Source of the DNA: Amphiscolops sp. MND2022
Taxonomy: Eukaryota
Direction of reading: 5' to 3'
Length of the DNA stretch: 60,000 nucleotides
Assembly (NCBI GenBank): GCA_964187785.1
Contig: OZ076409.1
Span: 64,172,001 to 64,232,000, forward strand
How positions within the stretch are numbered: the first letter of the stretch is position 1; every line of letters begins with the position of its first letter. Below the pieces are notes generated by a model that had not been told where the DNA came from, made no database searches, and saw only the letters and a list, made by a program, of their open reading frames with translations. The position numbers were made by a program, and so were the translations under genes. This document shows, piece by piece, positions 2,308-58,871 of this stretch.

Positions 2308-3973
2308 TGTCGCAGCCCCAAAGATGCGATGGGTCCGGAGTGCATCAGTGAAAGATAACCAACGACTTCGACAAACATTCTAAATACTGATATTTTTGTT
2401 TTTTTTTCTTTTCATTTTTATCAAGTCATGTAAATTCTAGGTATATTTTGTATATTTGGATCATTGTGAGATTTTCCTGAGCTGTTATTGAAAGATAATT
2501 CATGTAAGAAGGCGCTAAAATACATGGTTCATTACAAATATTAGCGTAAAACTCTCTATGCTATGAATTCCGTGCTTATTATGCGTCAATATGCCGTAAA
2601 TGTTGTGACGTATAAGCGTCAAAAGTCATTTTTAGAATAGTTTATATGCGTCATCATACGTAAACTTGACTCACGCATATGCGGCATTGTACGTTTTTAA
2701 CTACAAGACAATATACGTTTTCGGATAAACTGCATATGCGGCAATATGCGTTTTTACAATGCAATTATACACTGTTGAGCAGTTCTTATGTTATCGTATG
2801 TACGTCAACATGCGGTTTCCGCAGTGAAAGTATGAACGAATTGTGCAATATGGATTATGGAGTGTATGTGCTATTATGCGTTATTGAATGTTGATGCTTA
2901 CATGTTGTATACGCTATCCTGCAGTACAGGGAATACCGCATATACGTCATTATGCATTTTTAGCTGTACTCTCATCATTTTGAAGTCATGTAGCGATTAA
3001 TTCATCTAATGATACTTGAAACGTATTATACAGCGTCTAACCTTGTTTTCCTAGGATTTTCACGGTCCCTTGATAATATTTAGGGTGTCATTGTAGTGTG
3101 ATTTAAAGGATATAAATAGAATGATGTGATTTTGACGTTATACTGTTTTTAGCTCTTTAAATAATGATACCTGTAAATGTGATTGTCATCCTTTTTGTAT
3201 TTTTTGGAAAACTGAAGGGACCATTCATTCGAATTTTATCTCTCTCATCAAGCAGTTGCTCACTTTTCAACCTGGTCTTTTGAAAGCAGTCTTTTTGACT
3301 AACATTGTTTTATCTCCCGAATTGTCTTTAGATAATTCTTTTGAATAAATTCAAATTCTTCCCCAACAGCCAAAATATCGTTTTCCTTTGAGAAAGATGG
3401 GGAACAAAAGAAGTAGAAGGTCCAGGAGATTGGAGACCCCGTCTCCAGAAAGAGAACTCAATGAAACACAGGTAGAAACATCAACCCAAGGTAATATTAC
3501 TTTGACAAATGCCGAATCTAATATCCATGGAAACCTTGACAATGATGAACTTAGGAACCAATTGATTGAACCTAGCCAATTAAGCAATGAAATACAAGCG
3601 TGGACTGAGAATTTTGAACAAAAGAACAATGATAGAACAACAAAAATGAGAGAAGAAATGGAGAACAAACTAGATGCAATCCTGAAGGAGATAAAATCTA
3701 ATAAAAGTGTATCAACAGTAACAAACCCAAGATCTGAAATGGATGATATACAAAACATACAGCCTCCGGGACCCAAAACTAATAGGTCTATTGGAGTACA
3801 CGCATCTCACATCTATAACTCAGACTCAGAAAACGACGATTATCCTCTACAAGCTTCTAAAATGGGAGACCTGAAACATCCTGCTAAACCATTGTTCAGA
3901 TGCGAATCTGATGTAGATGTAACTATACATTCGGACGAAGAGTCCGACGCAGAGGAAGTGGAGGATTATCACA
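2308..3973 (+). repeat. 5' LTR of E1 (1666 bp)
   Basis: Starts TGTCGCAG, ends TTATCACA; matches 17180-18847 with scattered substitutions and two small indels. Confidence 0.95.
3111..3349 (+). promoter_or_regulatory. Putative LTR TATA box (TATAAATA 3111-3118) and poly(A) signal (AATAAA 3344-3349) bracketing R
   Basis: Same order TATA, AATAAA, gag ATG in the E2 LTR (42626, 42729, 42766). Confidence 0.5.
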
Positions 3974-5094
3974 TGGTGACAGGAGCTAACAAACATCTCC
4001 ATAGACAAAGTTCACAAAACTCCCAACCCTTAAACAATACCATTGGATCCCGCGCAGATCGACAAACATCAACAGCCATAAAAACACCTTCTGACCCAGT
4101 AAACCAAATTGCCCAAGCAATAGAGAAACTGGCAAACAAAAATGCATCACAATCACTGTTTCATCCAAAAAACACATTGACTTTCAATGGAAAAAATGAG
4201 AAAAATGAGAAATTCGAATACTTCGAAGACTTGTTCCACACTACCCTTCGTATGCAGCCAAATCTAACCGAGGAAATGAAAATTAATCACTTCCACGCTC
4301 ACCTTAGGGGTTTAGCCTTGAAAACCTTCAAAAACATACAAAGAACTCCAACCACAACCCTAGAGGACATCTTGAAGGTCTTCCGTAGAAAATATGTAAA
4401 ACCAGAATCCAGTGCTTCGGCAAAGCACCGATTTAACAGACTTTTCTTTGACCCCGAAAACCAAAAACTACCAGACTTCCTCGAAGAGCTCCAAGAAAGT
4501 GCTGAAAAAGCGTTTGGAGACAATGCACATCAGATGATAGAGAATTTACTCTATGCAAAGATGCCCCCTCACCTTAAAAAATCCATCAATCAAGCCTATC
4601 TTGAGAATGGGAGTTACGAACAGATCGTAAAACATCTCGAGAGAGAGATGGAACTAAACGGCTTGGAGGCAGACGAACCGTCGGTCAAGACCCAAATGAC
4701 CGTCACCAAAAAAGAACAAAAGACTGACAAACCGACCAAAAAACAAAATGAAAACCCTAAAACGCAAACCCCAAAAACAGTACCCAACAAGACACTTAAA
4801 AATGACCAATGCCGTTATTGCAAAGAGGCGGGCCACATGATGGCCGACTGCCCCAAATTAGCAAAACGGCGTAAACTTGAAGAAAATCCGGATGCAGAAA
4901 AATGTCAAAACTGCAACACACCCGGGCATGAAGAGGAAAACTGCTACTTTGGTGCCAATATGGAAAATCGTCCATCGAAATGGAACCTTACTGACGCTCA
5001 AAAGAAAGTCATCGAAGCTTATAAACAAGCTCGAAAACCTATTAAACCAAAAATAGAACGACCTCAACAATCCTCTTCCAAGGATTTAAACTAG
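3397..5094 (+). CDS. gag: Gag of E1, starting inside the 5' LTR
   Basis: Open from ATG 3397 through the LTR end and PBS (EDYH|MVTG). Capsid-like FNGKNEKNEKFEYFEDLFHT; knuckles CRYCKEAGHMMADC and CQNCNTPGHEEENC; homologous to E2 Gag. Confidence 0.9.
   Translation: MGNKRSRRSRRLETPSPERELNETQVETSTQGNITLTNAESNIHGNLDNDELRNQLIEPSQLSNEIQAWTENFEQKNNDRTTKMREEMENKLDAILKEIKSNKSVSTVTNPRSEMDDIQNIQPPGPKTNRSIGVHASHIYNSDSENDDYPLQASKMGDLKHPAKPLFRCESDVDVTIHSDEESDAEEVEDYHMVTGANKHLHRQSSQNSQPLNNTIGSRADRQTSTAIKTPSDPVNQIAQAIEKLANKNASQSLFHPKNTLTFNGKNEKNEKFEYFEDLFHTTLRMQPNLTEEMKINHFHAHLRGLALKTFKNIQRTPTTTLEDILKVFRRKYVKPESSASAKHRFNRLFFDPENQKLPDFLEELQESAEKAFGDNAHQMIENLLYAKMPPHLKKSINQAYLENGSYEQIVKHLEREMELNGLEADEPSVKTQMTVTKKEQKTDKPTKKQNENPKTQTPKTVPNKTLKNDQCRYCKEAGHMMADCPKLAKRRKLEENPDAEKCQNCNTPGHEEENCYFGANMENRPSKWNLTDAQKKVIEAYKQARKPIKPKIERPQQSSSKDLN
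3974..3982 (+). promoter_or_regulatory. Primer-binding site of E1 (TGGTGACAG)
   Basis: TGG immediately after the LTR terminal CA; identical 9-mer follows the E2 5' LTR. Resembles tRNA-Leu-type PBS (inference). Confidence 0.8.
5085..5091 (+). promoter_or_regulatory. -1 ribosomal frameshift slippery heptamer T TTA AAC at end of E1 gag
   Basis: X XXY YYZ in gag frame directly before TAG; the -1 frame reads KLETPRL..., matching E2 KLTSPRL. Confidence 0.7.
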
Positions 5095-8000
5095 AAACGC
5101 CACGCCTTAGCAATCGAAACGCCCAAATAACAGAAAAACCACAAGATGACTGGCAGCATCAAGTGGAAACCATAAATATACAACTCAAACAACTCACCAC
5201 AGAACCAGAATACACACCCCAAACACATAATCACTCCGACATCGATGAACCTCCACAGGAATCATACTATGAACTTATGAGAGATGCTCCTGATAAGTAT
5301 TTTTCAGACAATACTCAAACCCCCCCCTTTACCTACAGATAAACCACCAGCAAATGAACACCCGAGTACTTTTTCTTGCAATGAACAAAAACAACCCCTT
5401 CTAGATGAAGATATCCCAAACCACATCCAGTTTGATCAGGAACGCAACCTGTCATATCTACCTATGTCAACCTCGCTAACATTGAAACGAAAACGCCATA
5501 TGTACTATATGCCAATGGACTTCGAAAAACTCACACTTGACGGACTCATCGACACAGGAGCCCTGACTAGTGCAATCTCCGAACAAGACCTTAAAAAAAT
5601 CAAATTAATTGCAAATGAAGCAATAAAAGATACTGGCCCCCCACCAAACTTTCAAATTATGGTGGCTAACGGTCAATTAGAAGTACCCATCGGCACAGTT
5701 TTACTTGAATTCGAAGTGGCTGATTTCATGTTACGAGAAAATTTCATTATCATGAAAAACCTACCAAACCCACTCATTGGTCTCTGCTTTCTCCGCAGAA
5801 ACAATGCAGTTTTTGATGTCGCACAAGGCATCCTAACTTTCCCATACCTCTCAATGCAACTAAAACCAGATACGCAGGTAACAATGCGTCAAGCAACGCC
5901 TTTATTTGCTGAAAATACATACACACTACAACCAGGTGAAACCCTCGCCATAGCAAGCAGAATGCCCCACCTGTTAGACCATGATGCAACAGGAATAGTC
6001 ACACCTTCACCACAATTCGAAAGCCACGACAGCATTTTCATCACATCGTCACTTAGTACGGTTAACAATAATGCTATCGGGTACCAAATAGTCAACTTCT
6101 CAGAACTTCCATATACAATAGTTTGCGACACCCATTTAGCAGACTTCAAAATCCTCACACCAGAACAAATTAAACATATACAACCGGTAGATCCAGCGAT
6201 GTTGTCATTCATGATACAGCATGAAGAAACCACCGAAATCTACATAAATGAATTACTGAAAGTTCCTTCACAAAACCCCGAACAAGAGTCTTATTGGTTC
6301 CCAACACCAGAAGATCCAGGAGACCCTACAACCTATACCCCAATCCAACAACGAATCTACAATGAACTCCTTGAGCTTAAAGAACTCGAACAACTCAACC
6401 CACAAGAAAATGAAAAATCCAGGAAAACTTTCCTTTCGAATTTCGACTGGACCGACACAACGCTCAACCCAGAAGAACAGAAACAAATTGAAGAAATCCT
6501 CATTGAATTCCATGACATTTTTGCCAGACATCGATTCGACATTGGCACCAATCGTGAATTTAAGGTTAAGCTTACACCAAATGATGACCGACCAGCATAC
6601 AGTCAAAGTTTACCAACACCAATCAACCTTAAAGATGACATTACGGTAGAACTAGCACTTCTACACAAATATGGAATCATAACAACCCTACTTTTCTCAA
6701 AATACGCTAGTCCAATTTTTGCACAACGCAAACCGAACGGACGCCTCAGACTACTAGTGGATCTTAGAAAAATCAACAACTTAGTCACCGAAGACTACAT
6801 CAACAATAACCACCCGGTAAGCACATTATCGGATGCAGCACAACATATGGCAGGAAAGAAACTTTTCTGCAAATTAGACTGCTCCCAAGCTTACCACTGC
6901 CTCCAAATGGCAGACTACCAATCTATCCAGATGCTTGCTTTCAACTTCGCAAGCCGAACTTTTGCTTACCGCAGACTCGCTCAAGGGCTTAGCAGATCTC
7001 TTTCAGCCTTCTCAAGCTTCATGAGGGAGTACCTTGACAAGGCGATCAAGGCCGACCAATGGGCGATCAAGGACGAACAATTACACGCAAAGGCGTGGCC
7101 CCTCAAGCTGACAAAGTCAAAGATTTCTTATCGAAATTGAGATTCCCTAAATCCAAAAAAGCACTCCAAAGGTATATAGGATTCCTAAACTATTACCGCA
7201 ATTACATCCCGAGACTCTCTGAACGTCTCTCTCCATTCTTTAAACTCCTTAAAGAAACCTCCAAATTCTATATACCCACTAATTTGGTCGAAGATTTCAC
7301 CAACCTCAACAAACTTCTCATGCCAATTAGCATTGAGACAACCCCTTAAAGATAAACAACTCATAGTAATGTCTGATGCAAGCTTCACAGCAGCAGGATA
7401 TGCTATCATGATAGAAGATGATCCCAACCAAAAACTCCAGTCCAAACGCAAAACCTATGCACCCATAGCATTTGGTTCGAAAACATTCAACCCAACACAA
7501 ACAAAATTATCGATCTATGCGAAAGAATTCCTTTCCATCTACTTTGCTTTTGTCGAATTTGGACACCTTATGTGAGGGAGCACATTCCCCATCATAGTGT
7601 TCACAGACAACAGAGCGGTTACCCGCTTTTTTCAAGCAAAACTTATTCCTCCAGCACTCTGGAATGCATGTGATTATGTCTTGCAATACAATTTTGTCAT
7701 TGCCCACGTTGCTGGTTCAATGAACACTGCGGCGGATTTCCTGTCCAGAACGGAAGTCAAGCCAGTCGAAAAACTCGAAATGAGCATAAGAAACGATATA
7801 CAAACGAAAGCGATAGAAGTCAATATACAATCCTCAGGTATCGTAGAAGAAGAACAAATTTACATCCTCCCTGATGATGAATTTGATGAAAACAAACTTT
7901 GGGAGGAAAAACAAAACGTGAGAAATCAGGCTCAAACTGAAACTCACAATGACCCAGAAAACAATGTTACTGAACTTCAACAATTTTAAAAACCAACATC

Positions 8001-9813
8001 CGGCTTAAACACATGCTCTGAAGGACATTTCCGAGACAATGCCAGGATCAGACTCGAACAAAACAATGACATTGTTCTTAGAAATCTCAGAGCTAAAATC
8101 GAAGGAAACCCTTTCGATGAAAACGACTTGGCATCTGACTACAGATACCAACATTACCTCCAAAACATAACCAGAATTGAAATCAAGCAAGAGGTTCTTA
8201 CTCGCAAATACTACACAGACACTGGAACCACTTCGCATTACCAAATTCTGCTACCAACACAACTCCTAGAAGAACTACTTCAAGCCTTACATGGCCACAA
8301 CTCAAACCATCCAGGTATCACAAAGATGATACAAGAGGTGAGGCAGAAATACTACTACCCGTGTGTTGCAAAATACATTAAAAAATGGGTGACTAATTGT
8401 CAAACCTGCATACAAACCAAAAGGATCAATAAGGACCTCCTCAGGACCGAACTACTTAATTGCCCAGAATGGGACCTCGGCCCCGAAGACATTCTCCGAA
8501 TGGACATCCTACCAAACCTTCCACCCAGTGGTGGATACGACCACATTATAACAGCAATTGATGTTTTCTCGCGATACTTGTTTGCTTACCCAGTGACTCG
8601 TATAACTGCAACATCAGTCGCTCGAGTAATAATGGACATTTTATGCAAACATACATATCTTCCAACAACACTAATCACAGACCTTGGAACACAATTCAAT
8701 GCCCAAGTAACCCACGAAGTAACAGCAGTCCTAGGTGTTGAGATTAAACATGCAACAATGAAACACGCACAAACAATAGGACTCCTGGAAAGACCACATG
8801 CTCCAGTAAAAACCCAACTTAAAGCAGCAACTGGAGAATTCCGACATAACTGGCATAAATTTCTACCGTTAGCAGTTCTAAACCACATTACAACATATCA
8901 CGCATCGCTTGGTTGCGAGCCTTCACGAGTTTTTCACGGCCGCATACCACATAACATACTGGACTACAAGTTAGGATATAATCCTAATCCAAAATACCAG
9001 CCGCAAACTGATGTCGCAGAAGAAATACAACGAAGAATGCGAATATTACTAGACCAGACCAAAAAGAACATAATGCAATCCTAACTTAAATATAAAGCTT
9101 ATTATGATAGGAAGGCCAAGGCCTCACCGCTGGAAACAACGGACTACTGCTACATTCTTAATCCGAAGGCCGACACACAGGCAACGAAAATACCATTCCG
9201 TGAATTCAGATGGCAGGGTCCTTACAAGGTTGAAAAAGTCCTTCCTAACAACAATTACATAGTTAGGAGACTAGGAACAAACAAAACACAACTCTTACAC
9301 CGAATTCGGTTGAGGAAATTTACACCGCTCGCACCTTTAGCTGACATTTTTGTCCGAGAATCCGATTGGCAAAAAGATGATCAAATGCCAGTGGCTCACG
9401 ATGACTTATATGCTCAATCATGGAACACAAATTTTGGACCTAATCCCTTTGAGGACAGCCCTCCGGATCATACACAGAACACTGATGATATTGAATACGT
9501 ATCTGTTGATGCACCTGAAAATAACCACCCTCCCTCCCTCGAATTTCCAAAAAACAGTGGGGGGAGCCCAGTGGAACAGTCCACTGAACGCAAAGAAGAA
9601 AATTATGATGAAATCCAGCAAGAAAGCCAAGATAATGATACAGAAATCTCCCAAAAAACCCCAAAAGAAAAGACACCAGATACACAAACCCAAAAAACTC
9701 CAGAAAATTCACAAAATACCCCATTGCAAGAAGAACCCATAAATACTCGTGGTGAAAAATACAACTTACGCCCTAACCCTAACCCAAACTTCTCAGACTC
9801 TTACAGATATTAA
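5091..9813 (+). pseudogene. pol: Pol of E1 (protease, RT, RNase H, integrase), disrupted
   Basis: LIDTGA; RLLVDLRKIN, KLDCSQAY; MSDAS; HGHNSNHPG...CQTC; MDIL/TDLG/LLER. Lesions: probable +1 in the C-run ~5320, RT YVDD deleted ~7061, frameshift ~7320, stops at 7573, 7987, 9082. Confidence 0.93.
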
Positions 9814-10000: not shown

Positions 10001-13000
10001 TTAGTTTTTCTTCGACTTAGAAGACTTTGGCTTGGTGGCTGCAACAGACTCACTAGAATCGTCTTCAGAGCATCGGGCAACAGACACGCTAAGTCGCCCA
10101 AGGGAGGGCCCAGGAGAAGGAGTACTGGCATTACTGGTCGATCTACTGAGACTAGGAGTGGTCCCACCAGACTCTACAACAACTTTCTCAGCTTGTAGGA
10201 CAGATCTCTTGTAGGCAGCTTCAAGTTTGCCCCGTAGAGCAGTTCTTCGCGGGCCACTACCCTTGAGGAAATTCCAAATTGAAAATTTTTTGTCAATCAA
10301 CAAGTCCTGACCTCTGCCCAACAAGCGAAATGCTCGCCCAATTAAACGCTGATCTCTGTACAAACTGGAAACATGCGGAACGCTCAAGTAAGATTGCTGC
10401 AGACAAGTCACGCACCATCGGAACATCTCTTTATCAGATGATAATGTTGGGACTGGCACTTCAAAATGATCAACTTTGCCAACAAATGGAGGCAAGCAGA
10501 GACAAGCGTAACGAAACAAATGAAGCAGGTCCTGTCGACTTTGCATTTCATAATGTGAGGCAAGGTATTGCACCCAATTGTCGTCCTTAACCACAGAATC
10601 AACAATTTGGTAGCCAGAGAACGATATTGGCTGACACACTTGACTTTATCGCTAGGAGAAAGCCATCCTGAATTAACGAAATAGGTTGTGAGCTTTTCCA
10701 CTGCACTAACGTAGTGCCTCTCTGGTCCTTCTACCATAACAGCAAAATCGAATGACGACAATCCTCTAATCAGATTTGAATTGACAAGCTCATGTTTCAG
10801 CAGAACTTTGCAAAAAGATTTGCAAAATGCAATCGATTGATCAATGAATTTGCCCGGCCGGGGCAATTTGCTAGCGATCACTAAATTATGATAGTCAACA
10901 TTCAAAACGAATTCCGAAGCAGTTTTGAAGGGAAGGTCGGTTCGATCCAAATCGAGGCACAAATAATTGTCCCAATCAGTAATCCTTCCCAAAGTTTGAT
11001 CGGGTAGAATATTCTGCAGTTGGCAATACAGAAACACAGCAAACTTGTTGAAAAGTCTAAATCCACTATCCATTTGACCTTCCAATTCGGAGAAAGCTGA
11101 ATTATCTAAAACAAACAACATGGAATCCAGTTAAACATTCCCCTGAAGTCAGATATACGAAAAATACAACAAAAAGAACGTCGAAAAGATATACTATACA
11201 CTATTCCCCATGTTGATTTACGAAGAATATACGTCATTAGAAGGAAATTTTTATCAAATATACGCCATTACACACTTTAAGCTATGCCGAGTATACGTTA
11301 TTATACGGAACTCGCTGCAAAGCTTATACGAACACGTGCATAAATACTATACGTCAAAGTACAGGAAGAAAGATGGTGAGTGTACGTCATTATACGCATC
11401 TTACAAGAAAAGGTATGACGTCAACGATTGGAATGAATTGTAATGTCTATACGCTATCATGCGGAATGAGGCGTGATGACTATACGTCATTATGCGGATG
11501 CAGCAGTGTGAAGGACGAGTCACAATGGTAATGCATCACTATACGGAATGAGGTGTGATGACTATACGTCATCATGCGGATTCAGTAGAACAAAGAACGA
11601 GACATCGATGAGATGCATCATTACACGGAACGAGCTATGACAACTATACGTCACTATGCGGTTTCAGCATGATAGAGAGCAAATTACAATGTCGTTACAC
11701 AAAACGAGTTACAATGACCATACGCCACTATGCGGAATACGAATAACTTCGCGGAGCTACCTTGTAATGCTAAATTAAAAAGGAGATGCACATATATGCA
11801 GATTAATCCGGAATGATTACAATGAAATATGCGGAATTAGACTTAGAAAAGCAAAAATTGCAGTGTTTTGTTCGTACCGGATAAAGCAGGGCAGTAGTAA
11901 CGGTCAAAGCAACAAAACGTGGAAAAAGACGCAACTACTAGGAATTAGGAGAGAAATTGGACGTTGGGAAGTTAACGCACATAATATGCAAAAAGTTAGT
12001 CAGGTTAACAAACTGTCCCGAAAAGACTAAATATATAAAGACAACTCACAATGGTCAATCACACATCGTATGATGAATAGACGGGCCAGGTAGGCTGTGT
12101 CCAGCTTGAAACATTCATCGAGGGTGTTTGGCTAAAAGCAGTGGGGAATGAAATAAATTGAAACTCGGACTTTTGTAATACGTGATAAAGACAACCGACC
12201 TCTCTCATGTGGAAGCGATAAATTGGCAGTCGCGAAACCTGATTGAGATGCTGCAACACATGGTCCCAGTTCGCAGAAAGCTGTTCAATAATGATGGACG
12301 CCTCATGGAGCGAGTAGTCGAGCGTGATGACACACTAAAAACGAAAAATTGGTATTATTTTCAGCATACTAACCAAGACAAATGCTCTCAGGAAAATTCC
12401 AACTTTGTGTAAAGTCGGCAATGAATGGAGCCAGTCTCGATCGAGAGCTGTACGAAGCTTCATCAGGAGGTAGTCGAGTATCGACCGGAAGTCGTGCCTC
12501 TCGATAATTTGGGTTGTGGGCTTTTCAAGAGACTTTTCAAAATCAGCAGGTCCATATGTTTTGACAACTTTCGGTCTTCGGTTCCCGGGCAGTGTCGAAG
12601 CCAAGCAATTGCCTAATTTGTCTCCACCCCCAAGGACACTGATGCAAGAAGGAGGTTGCTCGAGTAGGCTCAGAAACGACGAAATTAAATCCAAAATGCG
12701 TCGGGGAATCAAAACCCCTCGGGGGCCAGTACCGATGCAGACACGGTAGAGTACATTTCCTGTCCAGAAGCACACGAAGAGACGAACGTGAGTTGGGTCA
12801 TGCTGGAAGATGATTGAATAGACCCCAGAAGATGAAATTGCAGTCACGCAATAATTTACCAGCTCTCGAAACATGTACACCAAGATTCCCTGGGAACAAA
12901 ATAAAACTCAGAAACTCAAATGACAATTTGATCATGGGTAGAATTTCCTGGTTGAGAACGCTAACTTAAATTGGAAAGTAGGAGAATTTACTTACAAAAA

Positions 13001-14362
13001 TGCGATGTTCGCTCCAGTTGAGTGATGTAGCTTGTTGAACACTCGGGAGGTGTCGTACCAACTCATCATGGACTCCAGTCAGACTATTTATATGGCCTCC
13101 AAACCGCAACCCGAACTCAAGGATGCAAATTTGCGACAGAACTTCTTCGGAAGGGCTGGTATGACTGGCTAAATCAGGTACTGAGGTTTGGTTTACCAAG
13201 GGCCGGCAAGGATCCAGTTGTGGCGCAATCGGGTAGGTGTCTTTCGCCTTTCTTTTAGCCTCGCTGAGAGGCACCCCTTGCAGTTCTTTCTCTTCCCGAT
13301 CGAAGAGTGGCATTCCAGGAATTTCCATGCGAATCCTGTGTTCCTTTACTAAGTGGCCCTCAGTACGGTAGTGGGACATTAATTCTAAAACCCCTCTGCT
13401 CATAAGGGATAACTCCACTTTGCAGACTCTACACCACCATTTGTAGGGTGTTTTCTCCTTTTCAAGGGGCCCAGTAGCCGAAAACTTTTAGACAGGATGT
13501 TTCCTGAACATATGGGTTTTCAGGGAGTATTTAGGTCTTTGCCTTTTCCCTCGTACAAAAGAAGATCCAGCCGTTGGAGGGTAAGGCACCATAGGCAGCT
13601 CGGAACTGTTTGCTGCATTGGGATTGGGGACAATCGTTGTGTCTCCTTGGTTCCCCACGGGTTCGTTTGTGACCATTAATGAAATCGGTCGGTCCCACTC
13701 GGCTTCCTCACCATGCAGAAGAGCAGGAGGTAATCGGTCTAGTACCCTAGACAAGGCAAGTATCTCATTTCTCGTGATGCTGATTCTCCCTGGATTCACT
13801 TGAGGCATCATCTCTCCTTCATCGATCACAAGGTTTTCAGTCGGGGTATTGGTTAGATTAGCTTGAGCAATTGGTTCCGGTTCAGCAATATGGTGAGGAG
13901 GGGAGGTTATCTCTTCTTCGTGAGAACGATCAAGGATGTAACGACTAAAAGGAGAAGACATCATGTGGGAACTTCCAGCTACCATAATCCCTTCCAGCAG
14001 TTCTTGGGATATTTCCCCAGGAAATAAATCCATTGCAGGAGGAGGAGGAGTGTCACAACTTTGAGTTTGAGTGTTCTCGCTTCGTTCTGCTCCGAGGGGC
14101 TGTTCTACGTGATGCTCAATCCCTTCACAAGTTTGATGGAGCACAACTACCGACGAATCATCGTCTCGCACGACAGAATCTGGCACCCCTTCTTCTGCGG
14201 GGGGATCTTTTGGGACGAGAGTTTTCTCTGCAGTAGAATGGGGCAATACAGACGTGGAAGGACCAGGGTTGTTTGTCTGGATAGCTGGGGAAATGACTTC
14301 CAATGGGGTATATATCTTGGTAGGGGATCTTCCAGGAGACCTCTCTGTTGCTCCAAGTTCGA
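10001..14362 (-). pseudogene. Spliced antisense gene of E1: BED-like zinc finger plus degenerate hAT-transposase-like protein
   Basis: Predicted exons 14362-12996, 12889-12404, 12334-12200, 12131-12050, 11105-10001, joined by in-frame GT-AG introns. Motif WWCRVCKVELSLMSRGVLELMSHYRTEGH. One stop (13488-13490) and one frameshift (~10620). Colinear homolog in E2; the 5' start exon is not located. Confidence 0.8.
11450..11740. repeat. Degenerate ~82-83 bp tandem repeat rich in TATACGTCATTATGCGG, inside the 944-nt intron of the E1 antisense gene
   Basis: ACTATACGTCA recurs at ~11479, ~11561, ~11643; related motifs span ~11190-11840. Confidence 0.65.
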
Positions 14363-16173
14363 CTAAAACAATCAAACCGTCACCGTCTGAGTAAATCGGA
14401 CTGGTTTCAAAACAAATGATCTCTGTTTTAGCATTACCGGAAAAGAAAGCGGAAATACAGCTAATTCGGAAGCCACAAAATCCTAACCGGAAGTTGATAA
14501 GCTTCCGCGAAGAGAAATTTAGCTATTGTAGTACTCTAGCTTCAAAATAGATGTTAGCCTGGCCAGCTTTTCATCTTTTAAAAATTACCGATCGGAAAAA
14601 ATTTGGACAGAAACAAAATTCACTCGAAAGAGTAAAATGAGTCAAACTTACCAGGAGTAGCGGTAGTCGGAGATTTGTAGCCCCAAGAAATGAAGTGTTG
14701 ACGAGACAGCATATCCTTGCGGGATTTCCGCCTTGAATTAGAATCCATCTCTCGAACAAATGAGTGTAAAGGGTGTTGAAAGTACAATAAATAATTCAGA
14801 ATGGTAACAATTAAATACGGGAGTTAAGATGAGTGAGGAACTGAAATTAAACTTAGGAGCCCTGGATTGAGGGGAGTACGAGAAAAGACTAAATAACTGG
14901 AAACTAACTATGATATACGACGAAAAGACTGATTAAAAAAGTTTAAAATTAAGCAGATTGCAGAAACTGGTGAAATAATCAAAGGCGTGGCGTAACAAAA
15001 CGAGGCAAAGAAGCAAATGAAACATGTATTTATTGAATATGCTTGTTCAAACTGAACGCTGATTGGTCAATTAAAATGTCATTCACCACTGCCAGGGTGA
15101 TAGATTGGTTAATTGACAGCCGCAAATCACTTCCTACTTATGCGCAAAGCAGAGATGGTTAGAAGACGTAATATATAAACTTCAATACATACAAGCACGC
15201 GGCAGTATACGATTTAAGCTGTGACGAACATACGTCAGTATACGAACTACAGGACAAGAGTGAGCGTCAACGCCCATACCAAGCAATGATGAGCATACGG
15301 CATTATGCGGAATTACCATAGCCACGTGCAATACAATTTACAGAGCTACATGAGATTATGCGTCAACATGCGGATCAACTGCAGATGATTATACTGTAAT
15401 ATGCGGATTCACAAAGTGGTTACGCGGTAATATGCGGAATTACCATAGCGGAGTATAAAGAGGTATTCTGAACCACACGAACGGCAACAGAACAGACCGA
15501 ACAATTACGTTACGTAATACGATGCACGATAGCCACACACAACGGTGTTAGAGTGGGTATTGGAAAGAAACGAAAAGTGACTGGTTACTCAATGGCAATG
15601 GACAACTCCCCCAAACAATTACTGATTACAATGCGCTTTTAAAGTAAAACTTACAAACAAAAACGTATAAACTGATGTTTATTTCAATATGGTTGCTTGA
15701 ATTTTTAGTTTCGAACATCTTGTTGGGAAAACTAAATTTTAGTCATGTAAGATGATTATATGTTTCCTTTATACTATATTTTCATATAACGGAAGGAGAG
15801 TCATGTAATCCTTTGATGATGATCATAATTTTGTTTGTTAGCTATTAAACTAAATGAAACACCGCCAAAGGGTTGAGGTGAAGAAGACATCCTCCTAAGA
15901 AATGCCTTAAATGGAATTTGTTTACGTTGAGTTACAAGAAATCACGACAATTTCCTTGAATCCAAATCCTAGCGTCAGGGTAGAGACCAAATAAGGAAGC
16001 AGTGAAACCCTGAGAATCATGACACTCAACTTTTTCGCGGGTTTTTGTCGAAGAAAAGGGAGAACTGAAAAAGACATCACCATATGGTCTACAATAACTT
16101 TAAGTTCAGTTGTCTCTAATTTCAAAACTTTGCCTTTTGCTGATCCTTAATTCATAAATACATCTTCAAAATA

Positions 16174-17223
16174 ATGAATCCAACACAATCTAACATCACT
16201 GAAGATCTGGGTTACTCGCGCATTTCCCATGATGTGATCGATATATCAAGCGAGTCCGGAGAAGAATTTGTCGTGGAACCTGGCAATATCGCACAACTAA
16301 ATGAAAGATTTAGAATCAACACTATGGGATCTAATATCTTGGCCGCTTTTGTGGGATCAGCGACAGCCGCTTTGTTCCCTCCTTCGAACTCAGTCGATCG
16401 ACAAGGGACCATTGATATCGCTGGCACCACTATTGAAAGGGAGATCATGGAGTTGATTGAAGAAAGTCCACTTTCGCCTTCTTCTTCCTCCTTGTCTTTC
16501 ATAGACTCAGAATTTGAAGAAGTGGACATGTCGCCGAGAGACTCCACCGGAGCATCAGAAAGACAGTTAAACAATTACGGGCGACCCGTCGCTGCTATTT
16601 TGCCCACGCCTAGGATTCCCAGACAACAATCAAATGAGATGATCAGACCAATACCAACATACCCACTGAACTTCTCACAAGAATCTTCCAACTTTCAGCA
16701 AATCAATACAACGAATGACCAAGGGATTACAAATCCTTCAGCGTTCGAAGCAGGTGGTACACATTCACAAAATGCATTCGTGTTAACAGAACCGCAATAC
16801 CCAGCTGTAGGGGACATCACACCCATGGTAATACATTTGCCCCCTAGATCTATGGTGGATGTTTCTGCCAATTTTATTGGCCCATCTCAACAAGTTACCC
16901 AATTTGGATTCCCATTCAACATCCTATATTGCCCCAACGTTCCTGCGGTAGTAGCCAACGAAGGACAAATCTTCCGGCTGTTTCCCACGGTCATGCCCAA
17001 CGTTTCCGGATACTGTCATTGGTGTGGTCGCACTTTCGATCAAATTGCGTTAGAGACCCTCGGGGACTATCTTGGAGCAACTGCCTATGATGGGGAAACA
17101 GTCAGAGATCGTGGAGTGAGGTCGAGAGCTTTCATCGACGGTTTTGAAGCTGCGTTGTTTATCTTTAAAAACGCAGGACTGTCGCAGCCCCAAAGATGCG
17201 ATGGGTCCGGAGTGCATCAGTAA
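16174..17223 (+). CDS. Extra sense ORF (ORF3) of E1, 349 aa, unknown function; ends inside the 3' LTR
   Basis: Intact ORF. N-terminal VIDISSESGEE; C-terminal CHWCGRTFDQI...AFIDG...SQPQRCDG aligns gap-free with E2 ORF3. Confidence 0.75.
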   Translation: MNPTQSNITEDLGYSRISHDVIDISSESGEEFVVEPGNIAQLNERFRINTMGSNILAAFVGSATAALFPPSNSVDRQGTIDIAGTTIEREIMELIEESPLSPSSSSLSFIDSEFEEVDMSPRDSTGASERQLNNYGRPVAAILPTPRIPRQQSNEMIRPIPTYPLNFSQESSNFQQINTTNDQGITNPSAFEAGGTHSQNAFVLTEPQYPAVGDITPMVIHLPPRSMVDVSANFIGPSQQVTQFGFPFNILYCPNVPAVVANEGQIFRLFPTVMPNVSGYCHWCGRTFDQIALETLGDYLGATAYDGETVRDRGVRSRAFIDGFEAALFIFKNAGLSQPQRCDGSGVHQ

Positions 17224-18847
17224 AAGATAACCAACGACTTCGACAAACATTCTGAATACTGATATTTTTGTTTTTTTTTTCATTTTTATCAAGTCATGTA
17301 AATTCTAGGTATATTTTGTATATTTGGATCATTGTGAGATTTTCCTGAGCTGTTATTGAAAGATAATTCATGTAAGAAGGCGCTAAAATACATGGTTCAT
17401 TACAAATACTAGCGTAAAACTCTCTATGCTATGAATTCCGTGCTTATTATGCGTCAATATGCCGTAAATGTTGTGACGTATAAGCGTCAAAAGTCATTTT
17501 TAGAATATTTTATAAGCGTCATCATACGTAAACTTGACTCACGCATATGCGGCATTGTACGTTTTTAACTACAAGACAATATACGTTTTTGGATAAACTG
17601 CATATGCGGCAATATGCGTTTTTACTTTTACAATGCAATTATACACTGTTGAGCAGTTCTTATGTTATCGTATGTACGTCAACATGCGGTTTTCGCAGTG
17701 AAAGTATGAACGAATTGTGCAATATGGATTATGGAGTGTATGTGCTATTGTGCGTTATTGAATGTTGATGCTTACATGTTGTATACGCTATCCTGCAGTA
17801 CAGGGAATACCGCATATACGTCATTATGCATTTTTAGCTGTACTCTCATCATTTTGAAGTCATGTAGCGTTTAATTCATCTAATGATACTTGAAACGTAT
17901 TATACAGCGTCTAGCCTTGTTTTCCTAGGATTTTCACGGTCCCTTGATAATATTTAGGGTGTCATTGTAGTGTGATTTAAAGGATATAAATAGAATGATG
18001 TGATTTTGACGTTATACTGTTTTTATCTCTTTAAATAATGATACCTGTAAATGTGATTGTCATCCTTTTTGTATTTTTTGGAAAACTGAAGGGTTCATTC
18101 ATTCGAATTTTATCTCTCCCATCAAGCAGTTGCTCACTTTTCAACCTGGTCTTTTGAAAGCAGTCTTTTTGACTAACATTGTTTTATCTCCCGAATTGTC
18201 TTTAGATAATTCATTTGAATAAATTCAAATTCTTCCCCAACAGCCAAAATATCATTTTCCTTTGAGAAAGATGGGGAACAAAAGAAGTAGAAGGTCCAGG
18301 AGATTGGAGACCCCGTCTCCAGAAAGAGAACTCAATGAAACACAGGTAGAAACATCAACCCAAGGTAATATTACTTTGACAAATGCCGAATCTAATACCC
18401 ATGGAAACCTTGACAATGATGAACTTAGGAACCAATTAATTGAACCTAGCCAATTAAGCAATGAAATACAAGCGTGGACTGAGAATTTTGAACAAAAGAA
18501 CAATGATAGAATAACAAAAATGAGAGAAGAAATGGAGAACAAACTAGATGCAATCCTGAAGGAGATAAAATCTAATAAAAGTGTATGAACAGTAACAAAC
18601 CCAAGATCTGAAATGGATGATATACAAAACATACAGCCTTCGGGATCCAAAACTAATAGGTCTATTGGAGTACACGCATCTCACATCTATAACTCAGACT
18701 CAGAAAACGACGATTATCCTCTACAAGCTTCTAAAATGGGAGACCTGAAACATCCTGCTAAACCATTGTTCAGATGCGAATCTGATGTAGATGTAACTAT
18801 ACATTCGGACGAAGAGTCTGACGTCGAAGAGGTGGAGGATTATCACA
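17180..18847 (+). repeat. 3' LTR of E1 (1668 bp), carrying a copy of the Gag N-terminus with a stop at 18586-18588
   Basis: Direct repeat of 2308-3973; TG...CA ends. Confidence 0.95.
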
Positions 18848-37031: not shown

Positions 37032-37073
37032 AGCGCTATATCTAATTGTTGAAATGAATTAGTTATATGATTT

Positions 37074-41589: not shown

Positions 41590-43351
41590 TGTCGCAGGCT
41601 GCCGCCTGTGACGGCACAAAGTTGACGACAACAACAGTAGGACAGGAGGCAGTGCCAGGAACATTGCCAATCTACTAGAAAACTTGGGACTTGTTGAACT
41701 TTTGCATTATTTTATATGTTTACATCACCTTATAAATTATGTAGTAAATGGCCTTAAAGGGAACTATTCCCTTATTCTGACATTTGAATTGATATACATG
41801 ATAGTAAAAATTCCGGACAGTTTAGGTTTTGTCCAATAGTACCATATTAGTCTGTTAACATGAAAATGTGCTTTTTGTTATGTTATGTTGTTGATGAAAT
41901 CAATATAGAAGCTGGATATAAACAACTGTAAAACGATACGGTAACGAGTTCAAATGGACTCTCGTATACGTGCTACAATGTCGCTTGTGCTTTTATTCTG
42001 GCCAATCAGAGGCTTACAAATCTGTGCAGTACTCTATTTGCCGATTATGGCTCATTGACTAAATGATTAAAACGCTGCATGTGCTATTTAGGCAAACGGC
42101 CGAGTCTGGCCTATCAATCTACTAAGATTAAAAGTTTAGGTAATTGATGCTATCGTCAAGTGCTATTAATAACTCTAATTTGATGGCCTTTATTGCACGA
42201 GAAGGCTTTGATTGATGATTTAGAATGATGAGTATTGTTTTAGTAAGTTATTATTAAATAACCACCCTCAATGTTGTACCAACTATAATCAGAACATGAA
42301 AACATGTATAGTGGCCTTATCAGGCTCGCTCAGCAATCCACCAACTATGTAAATTGGTTGACCCTGACCGAATTTGTTGTGTCACGCGACCCCACATACC
42401 TAAGTCACGTGCATATAAACAACTATGTTATTGATTACCTGTTGATCAGGAAATATTATTCAAGAATGTGAAAATTGTTGACGGTTAAATATTTGTTGCT
42501 TTGATGTAATGAATTTGTTGTTTCACCACATTGGTGACGTTTGTCTTGTGACCCAATAGGGCCACAACCTTGTGACCTTGTCTAGATCAAACATCCAAAG
42601 AATGTGAGTGTCATCCCCTCAGGGGTATAAATACCCGTACTCCTGCAGGTGGATTCATTCAAAACCCTTCTCTCAACCTGATCAAGACTAAATTTGTTCA
42701 AAACAGTTTACTGTTAGTTTTCCGAACAAATAAATAATTCAGTGTTTATACTCGGATTTTCTCTTATGCCTACCACCAGGAAACAGAAGAAAACCAGAAA
42801 GTCCCGCGGACTAGAAATCCTTTCAGACATTGAGAACTTAGACATAATGCTAGGCGGAGACCATTTTAATGGAGCCGAGAGAAAGAGAAGCCTAGATAGT
42901 ACTTCTGCAAGAAGGAGAGAAAGTATTACAAGCAATAATTTGGAAAATGAGGGAGAAAGTCCATACTCAAATCACAGAAATGATGATCTTAGGACTAGTG
43001 CCGATTACGGCCGAAACTCAGCTGATGCAAGCTCTCAAGCTGAAATTAACAAATTGTCGTGTGAGTTAAACTCTAGGATATCCAGAGAGATGGATGAAAT
43101 GATGAATAGCGTTAGCTCCCAAATTCAGAGAGCCATAAACGAGGCTATAAATAACCAAGTATTACCCCAAATACAAAATGTTATAATTGCCGGATCGGGA
43201 CGCGAGGCTAGAAGGGGATGGTAAGCTCCTATGGAGAGACCGGAAATAAGTACCGAAGTGCGCCGTAGTGTAAATGCGAAGGCCCATCTTAGAAGTGAAC
43301 AAGACGATGAACACCACAATGGTGAATTGCCCAATCGAAACGTTCATGACA
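41590..43351 (+). repeat. 5' LTR of E2 (1762 bp)
   Basis: TGTCGCAG...CATGACA; TATAAATA 42626, AATAAA 42729. Confidence 0.96.
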
Positions 43352-50837: not shown

Positions 50838-52033
50838 AAAAGACTGAATTCAGTTCAGGAAACAAGCCCTGAATTTTCTCCTTTTCTCTTATCTGTTATC
50901 ATGTTTTTTATCTCAGTCCCATGCGAGAAAGTATTTTGAATAAATAATGGGACGTATGAAAGATCCCTTGCAAAGAAAATAATACGGGATCAAGAAATCA
51001 AAGGAAAGAAATGCATATAAATAATGGCAACAAAACAGAAAATGAACAAAGTTTACAGTTTGCAAGTACATAAATACATATGTACAATTGGTTTTTAGAA
51101 CCATTAGCAGGGGATTCTTCGGCGACAGATGAGGCTCTACTACGGAAACGATTTCGTTCCATCCGTCTACGTTTACTATCACTGGGCAGCTTGACAGCAG
51201 GAGCATCACGCACAGAAGGAGTATCAGCAAAACTAGGACTCCTAAAATGGAATTCTGACCCAGAGAGAACAGAGCGATAGGAGGAGACAAGAGTCTTGTA
51301 AATCGCGGAACGTCCGAAAATGTCTACATAGGCCCAGGGATCGTAATCGGCAGTGAAAACTGATTGCCCAATCGACGAGGACCACTGGAAGAACTTTTCA
51401 AGTCGGGACTCAGTGCGGCAGGCAATCAAAGAATAAGGCACTGATGACATATAACTCTGGCAGGGCAAGATCACGTCTGTTAAACGAGACTGAAATCCTT
51501 TTGTGTCTAATTTCCCCAAAGAAACCGGGGGATATTCGGGACTAATAGAAGTAACACATAGACAGCTCAATTTGAATAAGTAGCAAAGATGCTCGTGGGT
51601 CTGGAGGAATTCTAAATCCTTGAAGAAATTGATGAGGTCAGGAGAGTCACTGGCTGAGCTGAATTCAGAAGAGTGGTTAGTTCGGAGGTAGTCCAGCAAG
51701 GCAACATACTCGTCCCGGCAAACTGATTTGTTGGACGCCGAAACCCAAGAGCGCAACTGAAATGTACAATACAGGCGATCGAAATGCCGTAAAGCAACTT
51801 CCACGGGCCTCTTGAACAGGATATACGGATCGAACGCAGCCAGTCCTTTGACGAGATCGGAACCGAGCTCGGTGTGCTGGAGGACCCCCGACAACAAACT
51901 TGATGAAGTCCTTAGCACTTGCTACAAAATCTGACCTAGCCGTTTCAGCGGTCTTGTTGATGACTGCTTTGCTTGACTTCTTATTAAAATGAAGTCCGGC
52001 TGCTTTCAGGTTGCTCGCAGTGGTCACCTTACT
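48682..52033. repeat. Tandem duplication of 1676 bp inside E2 (48682-50357 and 50358-52033)
   Basis: Junction CACCTTACT|GGCAACGAACC at 50357/50358; both copies hold the pol tail and the 3' part of the antisense gene. Confidence 0.93.
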
Positions 52034-55000
52034 GTCAATTTTGAGACGCACCAGAAAGTCCTCGTCATCCATAAGTTTGCCTTGACTGATCCGGAAGTCC
52101 ATCAGCAAGAACCAAGCGTTCTCCAGAGGTACTGTGTCAGGCTGATAGATGCGAAAGCAAAGGCGATTAATGTATTTGCATACCTCTCCACATAGGAAGA
52201 AAGAAGCATCTCGTCTCTGGCTCAAATTGATGACGAAACTAGTGACATCTAGAACATAAAACCCTAAAGGTCCCTAAAAGGACAACAGACTGAAGTGACT
52301 TTAGCAAACTAGAAATACTTACAATCGCTGACCAAGCATTGAAATAATTCCAATTTGACGACGAAGAAGTTGTCCATGATGAGAGACCACTCAAAACTCT
52401 GGACCTGTGAAACACATGATGTAGATACAAGACAATAACCCTACATATGCCAGCGAAAGGGAGCGGTCACTAAGACTCTCTCCGGGAGGAGATAAGTATT
52501 TCTCATAGATATAACCTTGTTATGGACTCCTTGATTTTCTTGCCGTCGTGAGTGGACAGTAAGGTAGCGAAGTATCGATTTCCATCTCTTCAGTAAGTCA
52601 CGGCACAGATCAGGTATCTTGACTACTTCTAGCTTGCAGGTCGTGATTGCCTAAACAAAATTGTTCTTAGGGTTTAAGTCCCGTTCGTTGTTGATTGCCA
52701 CTCCCCCCTTGCCGGGGTTGTGCAGATTAAATTCATAAGGCGGACTTACCCGGACTAGTTCAGTAGATTCCGTGATCCAGTCCTCAGATAGGCATCCTCC
52801 GAGTGAAACCAGAAGACTTTGGAGGACAGAAAACATGTCTATATAACCGAACACCCTATAATTCTTCTTGTGCATTAGAACCCGCAGGTCAAGTGACTCA
52901 AAGCGGAAGCAGCTTTGGACGCCTCGTGGATAGGAGGGATGCTCGTCCACTGTCCTAATCAGGTTGACAGCACATCCTGAAATCGCGACTACGTCAGGAG
53001 CAGTTGAAATGGCAGACAGTAGTCGAGACAGAGAACCCAGTTCCTCGGTGAGCCCTACGCCAGCGATGCCACTTCGGCAAATGAAGACACGACAGAGTTT
53101 CGCACCTTTCCAGTACCGGAGGGACGTGAAGCGGTTGGTTCCTCTCCTCTCAAATTCAATCCCAGAATGTTGGGAAGCGGCAACCTGTTCGGCTATGTCC
53201 TCCATCATGCAATTGAAGACGTGTTGGAAGATGGTCTGAAATGGAACAAATTTGAATAATTACGTGATCCTGTTCTTCTGAGTCCCTATTATGCTACACA
53301 TGGCCTTACAGGAGAACAGTCAGGTGAACTTACCATTATGTGAGCTTCACTCCAGTCGAAATCTTGGAAGGCTGCCTGGAACCCCGTGTAGCTCCCTGCT
53401 CTCGACCACAGTTTGCGGAGGATGACTAAGTCACCTGAGTCCTTGATGAAATCACCCAGGAGGCAAATTTGAGTCTGCAAACGCGATTGAGGGGTAATTG
53501 CAGCTGAAGTGTGCCCTTTCAAGTAGTCTTCGTAGAAAGGAAGTCTTTCGCCGACGTCAACAAGCTCAGTGTTAATGAACTTGGGAAGCTCATGTGCGAG
53601 GTCAATCTTGTTGAGGATTTTGCCATTCCTCCCTCGAACCCTATGTTGGATCTTCCCGGTCACCGGATCAGTAGTCTTGAGATGTTCGTATCACCATCTC
53701 TGGTCACGACGAAGATGTTTTTCCGTCCTATGATGGCGCAAGATCTCAACGTTGCCTTTGGTCTTGATACTGAAGTTCTTTTTACACATGTGGCACCACA
53801 CCATGTGAGGGTTATGGAGAGGATCGGCTGGGCCGGAAATAAAGGACCTCGTCCACCCTATCTTGGAAAAGAACTCCTTCCGCATTGGCACTCCCCGTCT
53901 TGGCGTTCTCTTGGACTTGCTGATTTTGGTCGTAGGTACTCCTTGTCGGGACTTTCGACCAGGGGACCGATCTCGGATCTCCGATAAGGTTATATCAAGG
54001 CTACTCTTCTCTGCTGTTTCGGTCTCTTCTCCGGACGAGTTTGGTGGTGGTCTCTGTTGCACCACTGTGGTGAGGTTCTCGGAAAGTTCTGTTGTAGGTC
54101 CGATCAATCAGGGCCATCTCTGTAGGGCTATCACTATCATCAAGATAAGGAAAGTCGCTAACATCTTGGAGCACGCTTGCGTCGGCAAAGGATCCAGGCC
54201 CAGAACTGTGTTCGGCCAAGGATTCATCGGAACTGGACGCAACTGGCTGAATAAGTCCAGGTGTGGAAGATCGGGCTCGCGACCGGAACTTCTCGGAGCG
54301 TGACGGGATTGCCACTGGTGTCCCTCTGACGGCTCCAAGTACCATCCTCTCCAAGGATGAACAAGTCATGTTTATGGCTTCGTCGGTTAGATCTCGAAGC
54401 AGATGGTAGACTTGCGGCTCCGCAAAGGCTACAACCCTCTGTCCGACCGGGAATGTGTAGGGGTCCTCAGTCTCGAAATACTGCTTCAGGGTCGCTCTGC
54501 TTTGTCCTGAAAGATCCCGCAATACTTTTTCCTGGGGCTGCTGGGCAAACTTGGACGTTCCCGGTTGTCCTGGATCATGCGTCTTTGACCCTGAGTCTTC
54601 ACATCCGCCCGACGCTGCTTCAGTACAGAAAGGAATGTCTCATATAAGAGGGGACAATCAGATTGACTGGTAGTTTCCACAGTCTGGTTGTTATCACTGT
54701 GATCTCCTGCGGCTCTGGGCTGTTCAGCTCCTCCGGGAAGCGGAGGAGGTTCATGTGCTGAAGATGAGGCCTCCCCATCAGATTGCAGGTGAGAGACTGT
54801 AGGTGTTTCACGAACCTGGTCTCGGGTAAATTGTAATTCGGGGAGATCAGTTTGTGGTTGTGGCACCACTGACAATGAGGATTCGAGCAATGAGAGGCTG
54901 ACCACTTCTGTTCTGGTCTGCTCAAGTGGAGTTGGCGTGCTGGCCCTCACAAACCCGGAAGCCTGATTCATACCTTGGGCATTTTGGCTTTGGGCCGTAA

Positions 55001-55306
55001 AAGGCCCCCTCTCAGTAAGGTTAGCATGGTCAGTCCCAGTGAGTTCCTGTGAAGCTTCAATTTGTTGGACCACCTCATCCGCGTAAGCTGTGACGTCAAT
55101 GTTACTCTCATTGCTGAAAGGAGAGTCGGCAACCATCTGCGGTGTTTGACTGAGAACAGCTCTAATTGGAGGAAATGGAGGCGGAGAGGGAACTGGATTG
55201 GTAATAGCCCTTGAAACTGGAACAGGAATCGAACTTTGAGAAAGCTCAGCGAGATTGACAGTTGCGGTGTTGGTTTGGGATTGGTGGTCATCAGCATTCG
55301 GATTAT
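51088..55306 (-). pseudogene. Spliced antisense gene of E2: BED-like zinc finger plus degenerate hAT-transposase-like protein
   Basis: Predicted exons 55306-53334, 53235-52750, 52650-52516, 52404-52323, 52248-~51088 with in-frame GT-AG introns. Motif VWCHMCKKNFSIKTKGNVEILRHHRTEKH. Frameshifts ~54520, ~54107, ~51895 and stop at 53691. Confidence 0.82.
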
Positions 55307-56428: not shown

Positions 56429-57199
56429 ATGAATAAATTCAACAAAGCAAGAAAGCTTTTTGGCTTCTTAGACTTCAGTTCAGATTCATCAAATGATTCA
56501 GTGATCTACATAAGCAGCGATGACGACACCTCTGACGGGTGGAACTCTGACTGGTCATCGGACACTGAAGAAATGGTGAGAGGGGTCGAAGCGCAGGTAC
56601 AGGCCCGTCCCATACCAATTGTTGGAAGAAGGATGACGACAGCAAGCGACGAACCGGGCACTAGTACCATGTTCTCCGGATTACAAACTACGCCTAAATT
56701 GGATAGGGCCTACTTTGACGAGAAAATTTGTTATGCCCCTCCATAAGGCAATACAAAAAGGAAGATTGAGTTGTGCAAAACAATTTTGCCGGTTGTGGAA
56801 TCACCTATGTTGCCCCCTCCCCATGAAAGGGGACCTTCTCTGGATACGCCTTTATCGCAACCCAAGATTAGTGATTTTCACGCATCCTACCACATACAAA
56901 ACGCATTGCCCTATGCAGATATCAGTGCCGAAAGATGCAAGAGTTGCATGGTATGTGGGAAATCTGTGGATGAAATCCAAGCCGCAAAAATAGTGAAATA
57001 CATGGAAGCCTCAACGCCGAGAAGTGAGCCGGCCTATATTACGGCACTCACGAGAGAAGCCTATATTAACGGTCTCAACGCGGAAAGTCTTCTTTTCATT
57101 GCACCCGCTGTGTCGCAGGCTGCCGCCTGTGACGGCACAAAGTTGACGACAACAGCAGTAGGACAGGAGGCAGTGCCAGGAACATTGCCAATATACTAG
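56429..57199 (+). pseudogene. Extra sense ORF (ORF3) of E2, one in-frame stop at 56744-56746; ends inside the 3' LTR
   Basis: VIYISSDDD near the N-terminus; CMVCGKSVDEI...AYING...SQAAACDG homologous to E1 ORF3. Confidence 0.72.
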
Positions 57200-58871
57200 A
57201 AAACTTGGGACTTGTTGAACTTTTGCATTATTTTATATGTTTACATCACCTTATAAATTATGTAGTGAATGGCCTTAAAGGGAACTATTCCCTTATTCTG
57301 ACATTTGAATTGATATACTTGATAGTAAAAATTCCGGATGGTTTAGGTTTTGTCCAATAGTACCATATTAGTCTGTTAACATGAAAATGTGCTGTTTGTT
57401 ATGTTATGTTGATGATGAAATCAATATAGAAGCTGGATATAAACAACTGTAAAACGATACGGAAACGAGTTCAAATGGACTCCCGTATACGTGCTACAAT
57501 GTCGCTTGTGCTTTTATTCTGGCCAATCAGAGGCTTACAAATCTGTGCAGTACTCTATTTGCCGATTATGGCTCATTGACTAAATGATTAAAACGCTGCA
57601 TGTGCTATTTAGGCAAACGGCCGAGTCTGGCCTTTCAATCTATTAAGATTAAAAGTGTAGGTAAATGATGCTATCGTCAAGTGCTATTATTAACTCTAAT
57701 TTGATGGCCTTTATTGCACGAGAAGGCTTTGATTGATGATTTAGAATGATGAGTATTGTTTTAGTAAGTTATTATTAAATAATCACCCTCAATGTTGTAC
57801 CAACTATAAACAGAACATGAAAACAAGTATAGTGGCCTTATCAGGCTCGCTCAGCAATCCACCAACTATGTAAATTGGTTGACCCTGACCGAATTTGTTG
57901 TGTCACGCGACCCCACATACCTAAGTCCCGTGCATATAAACAACTATGTTATTGAATACCTGTTGATCAGGAAATATTATTCAAGAATGTGAAAATTGTT
58001 GACGGTTAAATATTTGTTGCTTTGACTTAATGAATTGATTTTAATGAACATTGGTGACGTTTGTCTTGTGACCCAATAGGGCCACAACCTTGTGACCTTG
58101 TCTAGATCAAACATCCGAAGAATGTGAGTGTCATCCCCTCAGGCGTACAAATACCCGTACTCCTGCAGGGAGATTCATTCAAAACCCTTCTCTCAACCTG
58201 ATCAAGACTAAATTTGTACAAAACAGTTTACTGTTAGTTTTCCGGACATATAAATAATTCAGTGTTTATACTCGGATTTTCTCTTATGCCTACCACCAGG
58301 AATCAGAAGAAAACCAGAAAGTCCCGCGGACTAGAAATCCTTTCAGACATTGAGAACTTAGATATAATGCTAGGCGGAGACCATTTTAATGGAGCCGAGA
58401 GAGAAAGAAGCCTAGATAGTACTTCTGCAAGAAGGAGAGAAAGTATTACAAGCAATAATTTGGAAAATGAGGGAGAAAGTCCATACTCAAATCACAGAAA
58501 TGATGATCTTAGGACTAGTGCCGATTACGGCCGACACTCAGCTGATGCAAGCTCTCAAGCTGAAATTAACAAATTGTCGTGTGAGTTAAACTCTAGGATA
58601 TCCAGAGAGATGGATGAAATGATGAATAGCGTTAGCTCCCAGATTCAGAGAGCCATAAACGAGGCTATAAATACCCAAGTATTACCACAAATACAAAATG
58701 TTATAATGGCCGGATCGGGACGCGAGGCTAGAAGGGGATGGGAAGCTCCTATGGAGAGACCGGAAATAAGTACCGAAGCGCGCCGTAGTGTAAATGCGAA
58801 GGCCCATCTTAGAAATGAACAAGACGATGAACACCACAATGGTGAATTGCCCAATCGAAACGTTCATGACA
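57111..58871 (+). repeat. 3' LTR of E2 (1761 bp) with an uninterrupted Gag N-terminal frame
   Basis: Direct repeat of 41590-43351; followed by TSD CCTAC. Confidence 0.96.

Follow-up and report, generated by a model that had tools for sequence, protein, structure and literature searches.

An antisense, intron-containing gene of a Ty3/Gypsy retrotransposon clade that may derive from a disarmed DNA transposase

Excerpts of the papers cited here describe antisense open reading frames (aORFs) between pol and the 3' long terminal repeat (LTR) of plant Gypsy elements, among them gene23 of maize Grande, that of rice RIRE2 and TRP28/PF04195 of Retand, and give the Grande gene its own promoter and a nuclear product (PMC7264820, PMC11963269). 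An antisense extra gene, brtn, is likewise described in Boty-like Gypsy elements of Botrytis and Sclerotinia (PMC8365987, PMC4227169). A 2020 review treats the origin and function of LTR-element antisense ORFs as open and reports no similarity to other transposons (PMC7264820), and multi-exon antisense transcripts of Arabidopsis Copia elements were reported to be non-coding (10.1101/2024.04.02.587720). Here we describe an antisense gene in two Ty3/Gypsy elements, E1 and E2, both on the plus strand of 60,000 nt of the Amphiscolops sp. MND2022 genome (C1:64172001-64232000, hereafter the window), for which an assembly of 1.07 Gb was searched. The gene is like the plant aORFs in position, orientation, presence in most copies and conservation, and like brtn in being an antisense extra gene of a Gypsy element. 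Unlike the plant aORFs, it has four to five introns and about 1,090 codons (E1 model), and profile scans of its product gave no match to PF04195. It is under selection, and its product is probably a DNA transposase that has lost its catalytic residues.

An earlier note on this DNA had joined scattered minus-strand ORFs into one gene in each element, and the model held in detail. All eight introns start with GT and end with AG, the internal exons measure 486, 135 and 82 nt with intron phases 0, 0, 0 and 1 in both E1 and E2 (Table 1), and the peptides match across the junctions, as do W23 and SR34-35 of the 45-residue exon. The two genes show no evident nucleotide similarity (blastn without a match across the gene); tblastn of E1 against E2 gave E values of 5e-9 and 1e-5, and the exon 2 products are 22% identical (E 2e-6, one gap per row). 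Position 14362 is a phase-1 acceptor junction, as are its counterparts in three related loci (L061-L063) and in seven of eight shorter E1-type loci where located; thus, an upstream exon probably supplies the ATG. No counterpart of the 97-nt candidate for this exon was found in L061-L063. Both genes in the window are broken, that of E1 by a stop and a frameshift and that of E2 in several places.

Table 1. Coordinates of the antisense gene and of its carrier elements in the window
Feature	Positions	Strand	Remarks
E1 5' LTR	2308..3973	+	TG...CA, 1666 bp; contains about 192 gag codons and one full 14-bp motif copy
E1 gag	3397..5094	+	
E1 pol (protease, reverse transcriptase, RNase H, integrase)	5281..9813	+	stops interrupt
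Last exon, E1	10001..11105	-	all-helical domain and Ser/Lys-rich tail; frameshift near 10600
Intron 4, E1	11106..12049	-	944 nt, phase 1; 82-bp repeats, four 14-bp motif copies
82-nt exon, E1	12050..12131	-	
Intron 3, E1	12132..12199	-	68 nt, phase 0
135-nt exon, E1	12200..12334	-	
Intron 2, E1	12335..12403	-	69 nt, phase 0; missing from family L078-L080
486-nt exon (exon 2), E1	12404..12889	-	RNase H-like core without catalytic Asp
Intron 1, E1	12890..12995	-	106 nt, phase 0
1367-nt exon, E1	12996..14362	-	S/T/P/E-rich region, basic patch, C-x2-C-x16-H-x5-H finger; stop 13488-13490
Probable further intron, E1	14363..14651	-	289 nt, phase 1; acceptor kept in relatives, donor inferred
Candidate first coding exon, E1	14652..14748	-	97 nt, ATG at 14748; unconfirmed
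Motif and half-site cluster upstream of gene	15231..15432	-	
Second accessory ORF, E1	16144..17223	+	359 aa stop to stop; points away from antisense gene
E1 3' LTR	17180..18847	+	1.6% from E1 5' LTR
E2 5' LTR	41590..43351	+	target-site duplication CCTAC
E2 antisense gene	50998..55306	-	exons 55306-53334, 53235-52750, 52650-52516, 52404-52323, 52248-50998
Second accessory ORF, E2	56282-57199	+	
E2 3' LTR	57111..58871	+	2.8% from E2 5' LTR

In further genome copies, exons were placed by protein similarity alone and their boundaries read afterwards. Both window loci and a duplicate were excluded, and intron 4 was scored only where exon 5 was located; the donor of introns 1-4 was GT in 60/60, 58/60, 57/60 and 55/56 copies and the acceptor AG in 57/60, 55/60, 60/60 and 53/56, these copies representing a handful of subfamilies and not independent cases. 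Because the dinucleotides are near-universal in copies aligned in this way, the boundaries are not due to chance. Three donors had been singled out as weak and positionally conserved; their positions are conserved, but the sequence GTTGGA is private to the E1 copy (of the 11 copies closest to it, L002-L012, 10 read GTTGGT). As a GT donor demands, 109 of 113 database ORFs have Val as the next residue after exon 2. In some families, intron 1 has a length divisible by three and no stop, so that read-through frames of 660-732 aa arise (L061:5474-7456, L062:2389-4587).

Exon 2 of E1 had 5571 candidates in the genome and exon 2 of E2 had 6226; 139 and 142, respectively, of the best 150 of each were free of stops, figures biased to clean copies by the choice of top-scoring matches. 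The ratio of nonsynonymous to synonymous divergence (dN/dS) was computed for 18 pairs and was well under 1 in all 10 with a measurable within-clade dS, at 0.05-0.13 in nine and 0.27 in one recent pair. For six others dS was saturated, with dN of 0.18-0.31 and intron identities of 0.41-0.62 against 0.50 for shuffled sequence, and two cross-clade pairs were uninformative for dN/dS. Four control pairs had stops in all five other frames. Constraint extends to the last exon, to the finger region and even to the disordered N-terminus.

Among the 150 exon-2 and 140 integrase matches listed, 46 exon-2 loci lie less than 10 kb from an integrase, where about 0.4 were expected, and in all 46 the two genes are on opposite strands, converging, 2.0-4.3 kb apart; the other 104 have no integrase among the matches listed, which says nothing on their linkage. 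In the protein database the last exon forms 676 clusters at 50% identity, some of which probably come from other species because they share no more than 31% identity with any sequence scored in this genome. The proposal of the earlier note, an ancient, selected accessory gene of the whole clade, is thus supported by dN/dS, splice sites, integrase linkage and these 676 clusters.

Exon sizes, constant between E1 and E2 as had been noted, are not absolutely so. A third family of this genome (L078-L080) lacks intron 2 but retains the 82-nt exon and the other three introns (1, 3 and 4), its 486-nt part continuing directly into an exon 3 part of 132 nt, with one codon fewer and W23 present. The sequence is clean in L078 and has indels in the other two; by eye, the strand opposite the gene in L079 carries an integrase frame of Gypsy type. 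Four database proteins align gap-free over junction 4, and two of them (P0221 and P0251) also over junction 3, while P0197, judged by eye, lacks intron 3 and keeps intron 4. A quick tree of 45 rows requires three changes to account for the four proteins that lack intron 4, a weak clustering (32/500 shuffles were as low) with the intron state undefined for several rows; P0134, which lacks intron 4, nests in intron-bearing clades with 98-99% support.

An intron antisense to the genomic RNA is carried backwards and so is not spliced out in retrotransposition. Exact, independent losses could be the trace of recombination with reverse-transcribed, spliced mRNA. There are two other possibilities for the intron-less forms: they may reflect repeated intron gain at the same site, or contigs derived from RNA. 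In either case the junctions would still be confirmed. By joining at the same junctions, the intron-less relatives indirectly suggest that the antisense gene is separately transcribed and spliced, and we regard its expression as very probable.

In its fold class, the protein looks like a DNA transposase. The 486-nt exon product of a relative matches residues 153-265 of Hermes, among other RNase H folds, and the best fold match of a last-exon product of a relative is Hermes again, at 368-609; the two matches are collinear with the antisense protein, whose RNase H-like core is recognised at the level of fold only. The finger pattern CCHH occurs in 114 of 120 sequences, with no Pfam BED match. 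Named Atlas neighbours are hAT- or transposase-derived proteins (scores 0.90-0.91). The finger, the RNase H-like core, a putative helical insertion and the final helices would succeed one another as in hAT transposases (Hermes) and in their derivatives GTF2IRD2, FAM200/ZBED5 and, for the finger, SPIN-DOC. Unlike hAT proteins, the protein has a long disordered N-terminus, is at home inside a retrotransposon and gave no significant match to PF05699, PF14291 or hAT profiles. Nor did the 120 sequences show a conserved Asp-Asp-Glu (DDE) triad with CxxH, in columns placed by eye and from a non-significant alignment; the conserved Asp has been lost, the second Asp column keeping D in 23. We consider it probable that the protein is a disarmed DDE transposase of hAT-like origin.

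The host genome contains 2215 hAT candidates, and the diverse hAT transposases at L064-L077, several of them open over 600-700 aa, include no donor recognisable by sequence. The named relatives of one host hAT protein are all animal. This abundance, with the D kept in some sequences, would suit a nested DNA transposon, active or hitch-hiking, in place of an accessory gene. However, the gene has the same place and orientation in all 46 linked copies and in a distant third family, is under strong purifying selection across subfamilies that have no conserved triad, and has no inverted repeat of at least 40 nt around it; a nested transposon is highly improbable and already largely refuted. A real gene could also encode a captured host or viral RNase H-like protein that matches Hermes by chance. 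This is improbable: three separate parts match hAT-type proteins in the right order, no viral fold match was found, and no named homologue occurs among the proteins listed.

Seven copies of a 14-bp motif, made up of a CG-containing half-site and then TGACGTA, lie in the window, where 0.02 would be expected; all are in E1 and in one orientation. One copy lies in each E1 LTR, four in intron 4 and one upstream of the gene, and half-sites cluster at the same three places. The motif is present in 33 of 33 E1-type loci and in 0 of 47 others, most of these loci spanning the gene only and intron 4 of the E2 type being about 74 nt long.

We propose that an ancestor of this Gypsy clade acquired the gene of a cut-and-paste, hAT-like DDE transposase, lying antisense behind pol and ahead of the 3' LTR. 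Its introns would survive because the genomic RNA carries them in reverse. A promoter of its own, in the 14.7-16.1 kb spacer, would drive transcription of the gene, and the transcript would be spliced. Its product would have lost the catalytic residues, kept the zinc finger, the fold and the basic patch, and gained the long disordered N-terminus. In the nucleus it would most likely bind short motifs in the LTR and in internal non-coding DNA sequence-specifically, and so activate or un-silence cognate copies of the element. To the regulatory role we give about an even chance, and our judgement is just as evenly balanced on the explanation as a whole, a captured dead transposase reused as a sequence-specific regulator of its element. 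Two points weigh against it: no equivalent motif cluster was found in E2 in the window, and the motif could be a host basic leucine zipper (bZIP) site.

The antisense protein diverges several times faster than the integrase of the same elements, with dS saturated: its identity is 60-68% (integrase 88-90%) within the E1 clade and 15-20% (integrase 50-58%) across clades. A factor that is in conflict with its host, or that follows a shifting target, would be expected to evolve in this way. Such divergence is unexpected for a tight partner of integrase. It bears on another fate of the same transposase, in which the dead protein joins the integration complex, tethers it to chromatin or to the element ends and steers or helps insertion. 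The transposase-like fold, the intact finger, the motif copy in both E1 LTRs and a Pfam scan without a chromodomain match in either integrase would fit such a tether, but the majority of motif copies are found within intron 4 and the spacer, well away from the ends, and we consider it unlikely.

The protein might alternatively act on RNA, exporting unspliced genomic RNA in the manner of Rev or suppressing silencing by small RNAs. The seven full motif copies all point the same way, RNase H folds bind RNA, and the C-x2-C...H-x5-H spacing is also that of U1/matrin RNA-binding fingers. An export protein is described for the LTR element Cer1 in the excerpt consulted (PMC10309623). Against this stand the named Atlas neighbours, which are transposase-derived and not RNA-binding, and the DNA transposase as the best fold match of the last exon; a role in RNA seems quite unlikely.

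For the proposed regulator, the nearest described principle comes from plant DNA transposons, in which excerpts report transposase-derived, catalytically dead, sequence-specific activators with repeated non-coding targets (10.64898/2026.08.24.746577, PMC5735166). VANC of VANDAL and TnpA of Spm, the latter derived from a transposase, would share with the protein here the principle of an element-encoded, fast-evolving, sequence-specific activator with such targets. The differences are that they belong to plant DNA transposons, share no detected sequence with this protein, and have a demonstrated function that we infer here. Excerpts of rotifer, planarian, errantivirus, brown-algal and domain-capture studies mention no such gene (PMC5408684, PMC6431247, PMC13524379, PMC12477816, PMC3597677), and in the literature searched, where coverage of subscription journals and Repbase reports was thin, no hAT-like transposase gene was found in an LTR element. 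Since the gene has a probable ancestor in a cut-and-paste transposase, a candidate target in DNA and diverged variants in the hundreds, co-evolution of protein and motif is directly testable. If true, the proposal implies that genes pass from DNA transposons to retrotransposons and that a replicating retroelement can lose introns exactly. We hold its fullest form only tentatively: an LTR-retrotransposon clade of thousands of copies would have domesticated a whole class II transposase as a VANC-like anti-silencing activator outside plants, with a clade-specific motif array as its target and introns lost singly by recombination with its own reverse-transcribed mRNA.

The carriers E1 and E2 are young yet broken copies. 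Each has the Pfam domains of gag, protease, reverse transcriptase, RNase H and integrase in Gypsy order between two TG...CA LTRs, with TGG after the 5' LTR, where a primer-binding site would be expected. E2 is flanked by CCTAC on both sides; the flanks of E1 differ (GCAAC, 2303-2307, and GCTGC, 18848-18852) despite LTRs 1.6% apart, and E1 is perhaps a recombinant of two insertions. No purine-rich tract precedes the 3' LTR in E1 (17150-17179) or E2 (57080-57110), where an ORF enters the LTR instead. The start of gag, about 190 codons, lies within the 5' LTR (3397-3973 in E1, 42766-43351 in E2) and runs through the putative primer-binding site, and the 3' LTR holds the same frame.

The second accessory ORF is 51% identical over 118 aa to an ORF of L061 (9141-9701) and has a CxxC and a hydrophobic-then-acidic stretch, which we take to resemble a SUMO-interacting motif. 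Elsewhere in that locus (L061:1-3500), no integrase frame of at least 150 aa lies behind the antisense gene, and by eye the other ORFs resemble a different retroelement. A 1.68-kb tandem duplication in E2 (48682-52038, 97.5% identical) spans the ends of pol and of the antisense gene. Between the elements, an 84-bp unit is repeated 50 times at 24280-28475 (74% matches); stops in all six frames of four translated units exclude a zinc-finger gene there. Long, near-perfect inverted repeats at 19576-21900 and 36700-37960, which form a palindrome of 2.3 kb and a nested set of smaller size, are possibly foldback elements.
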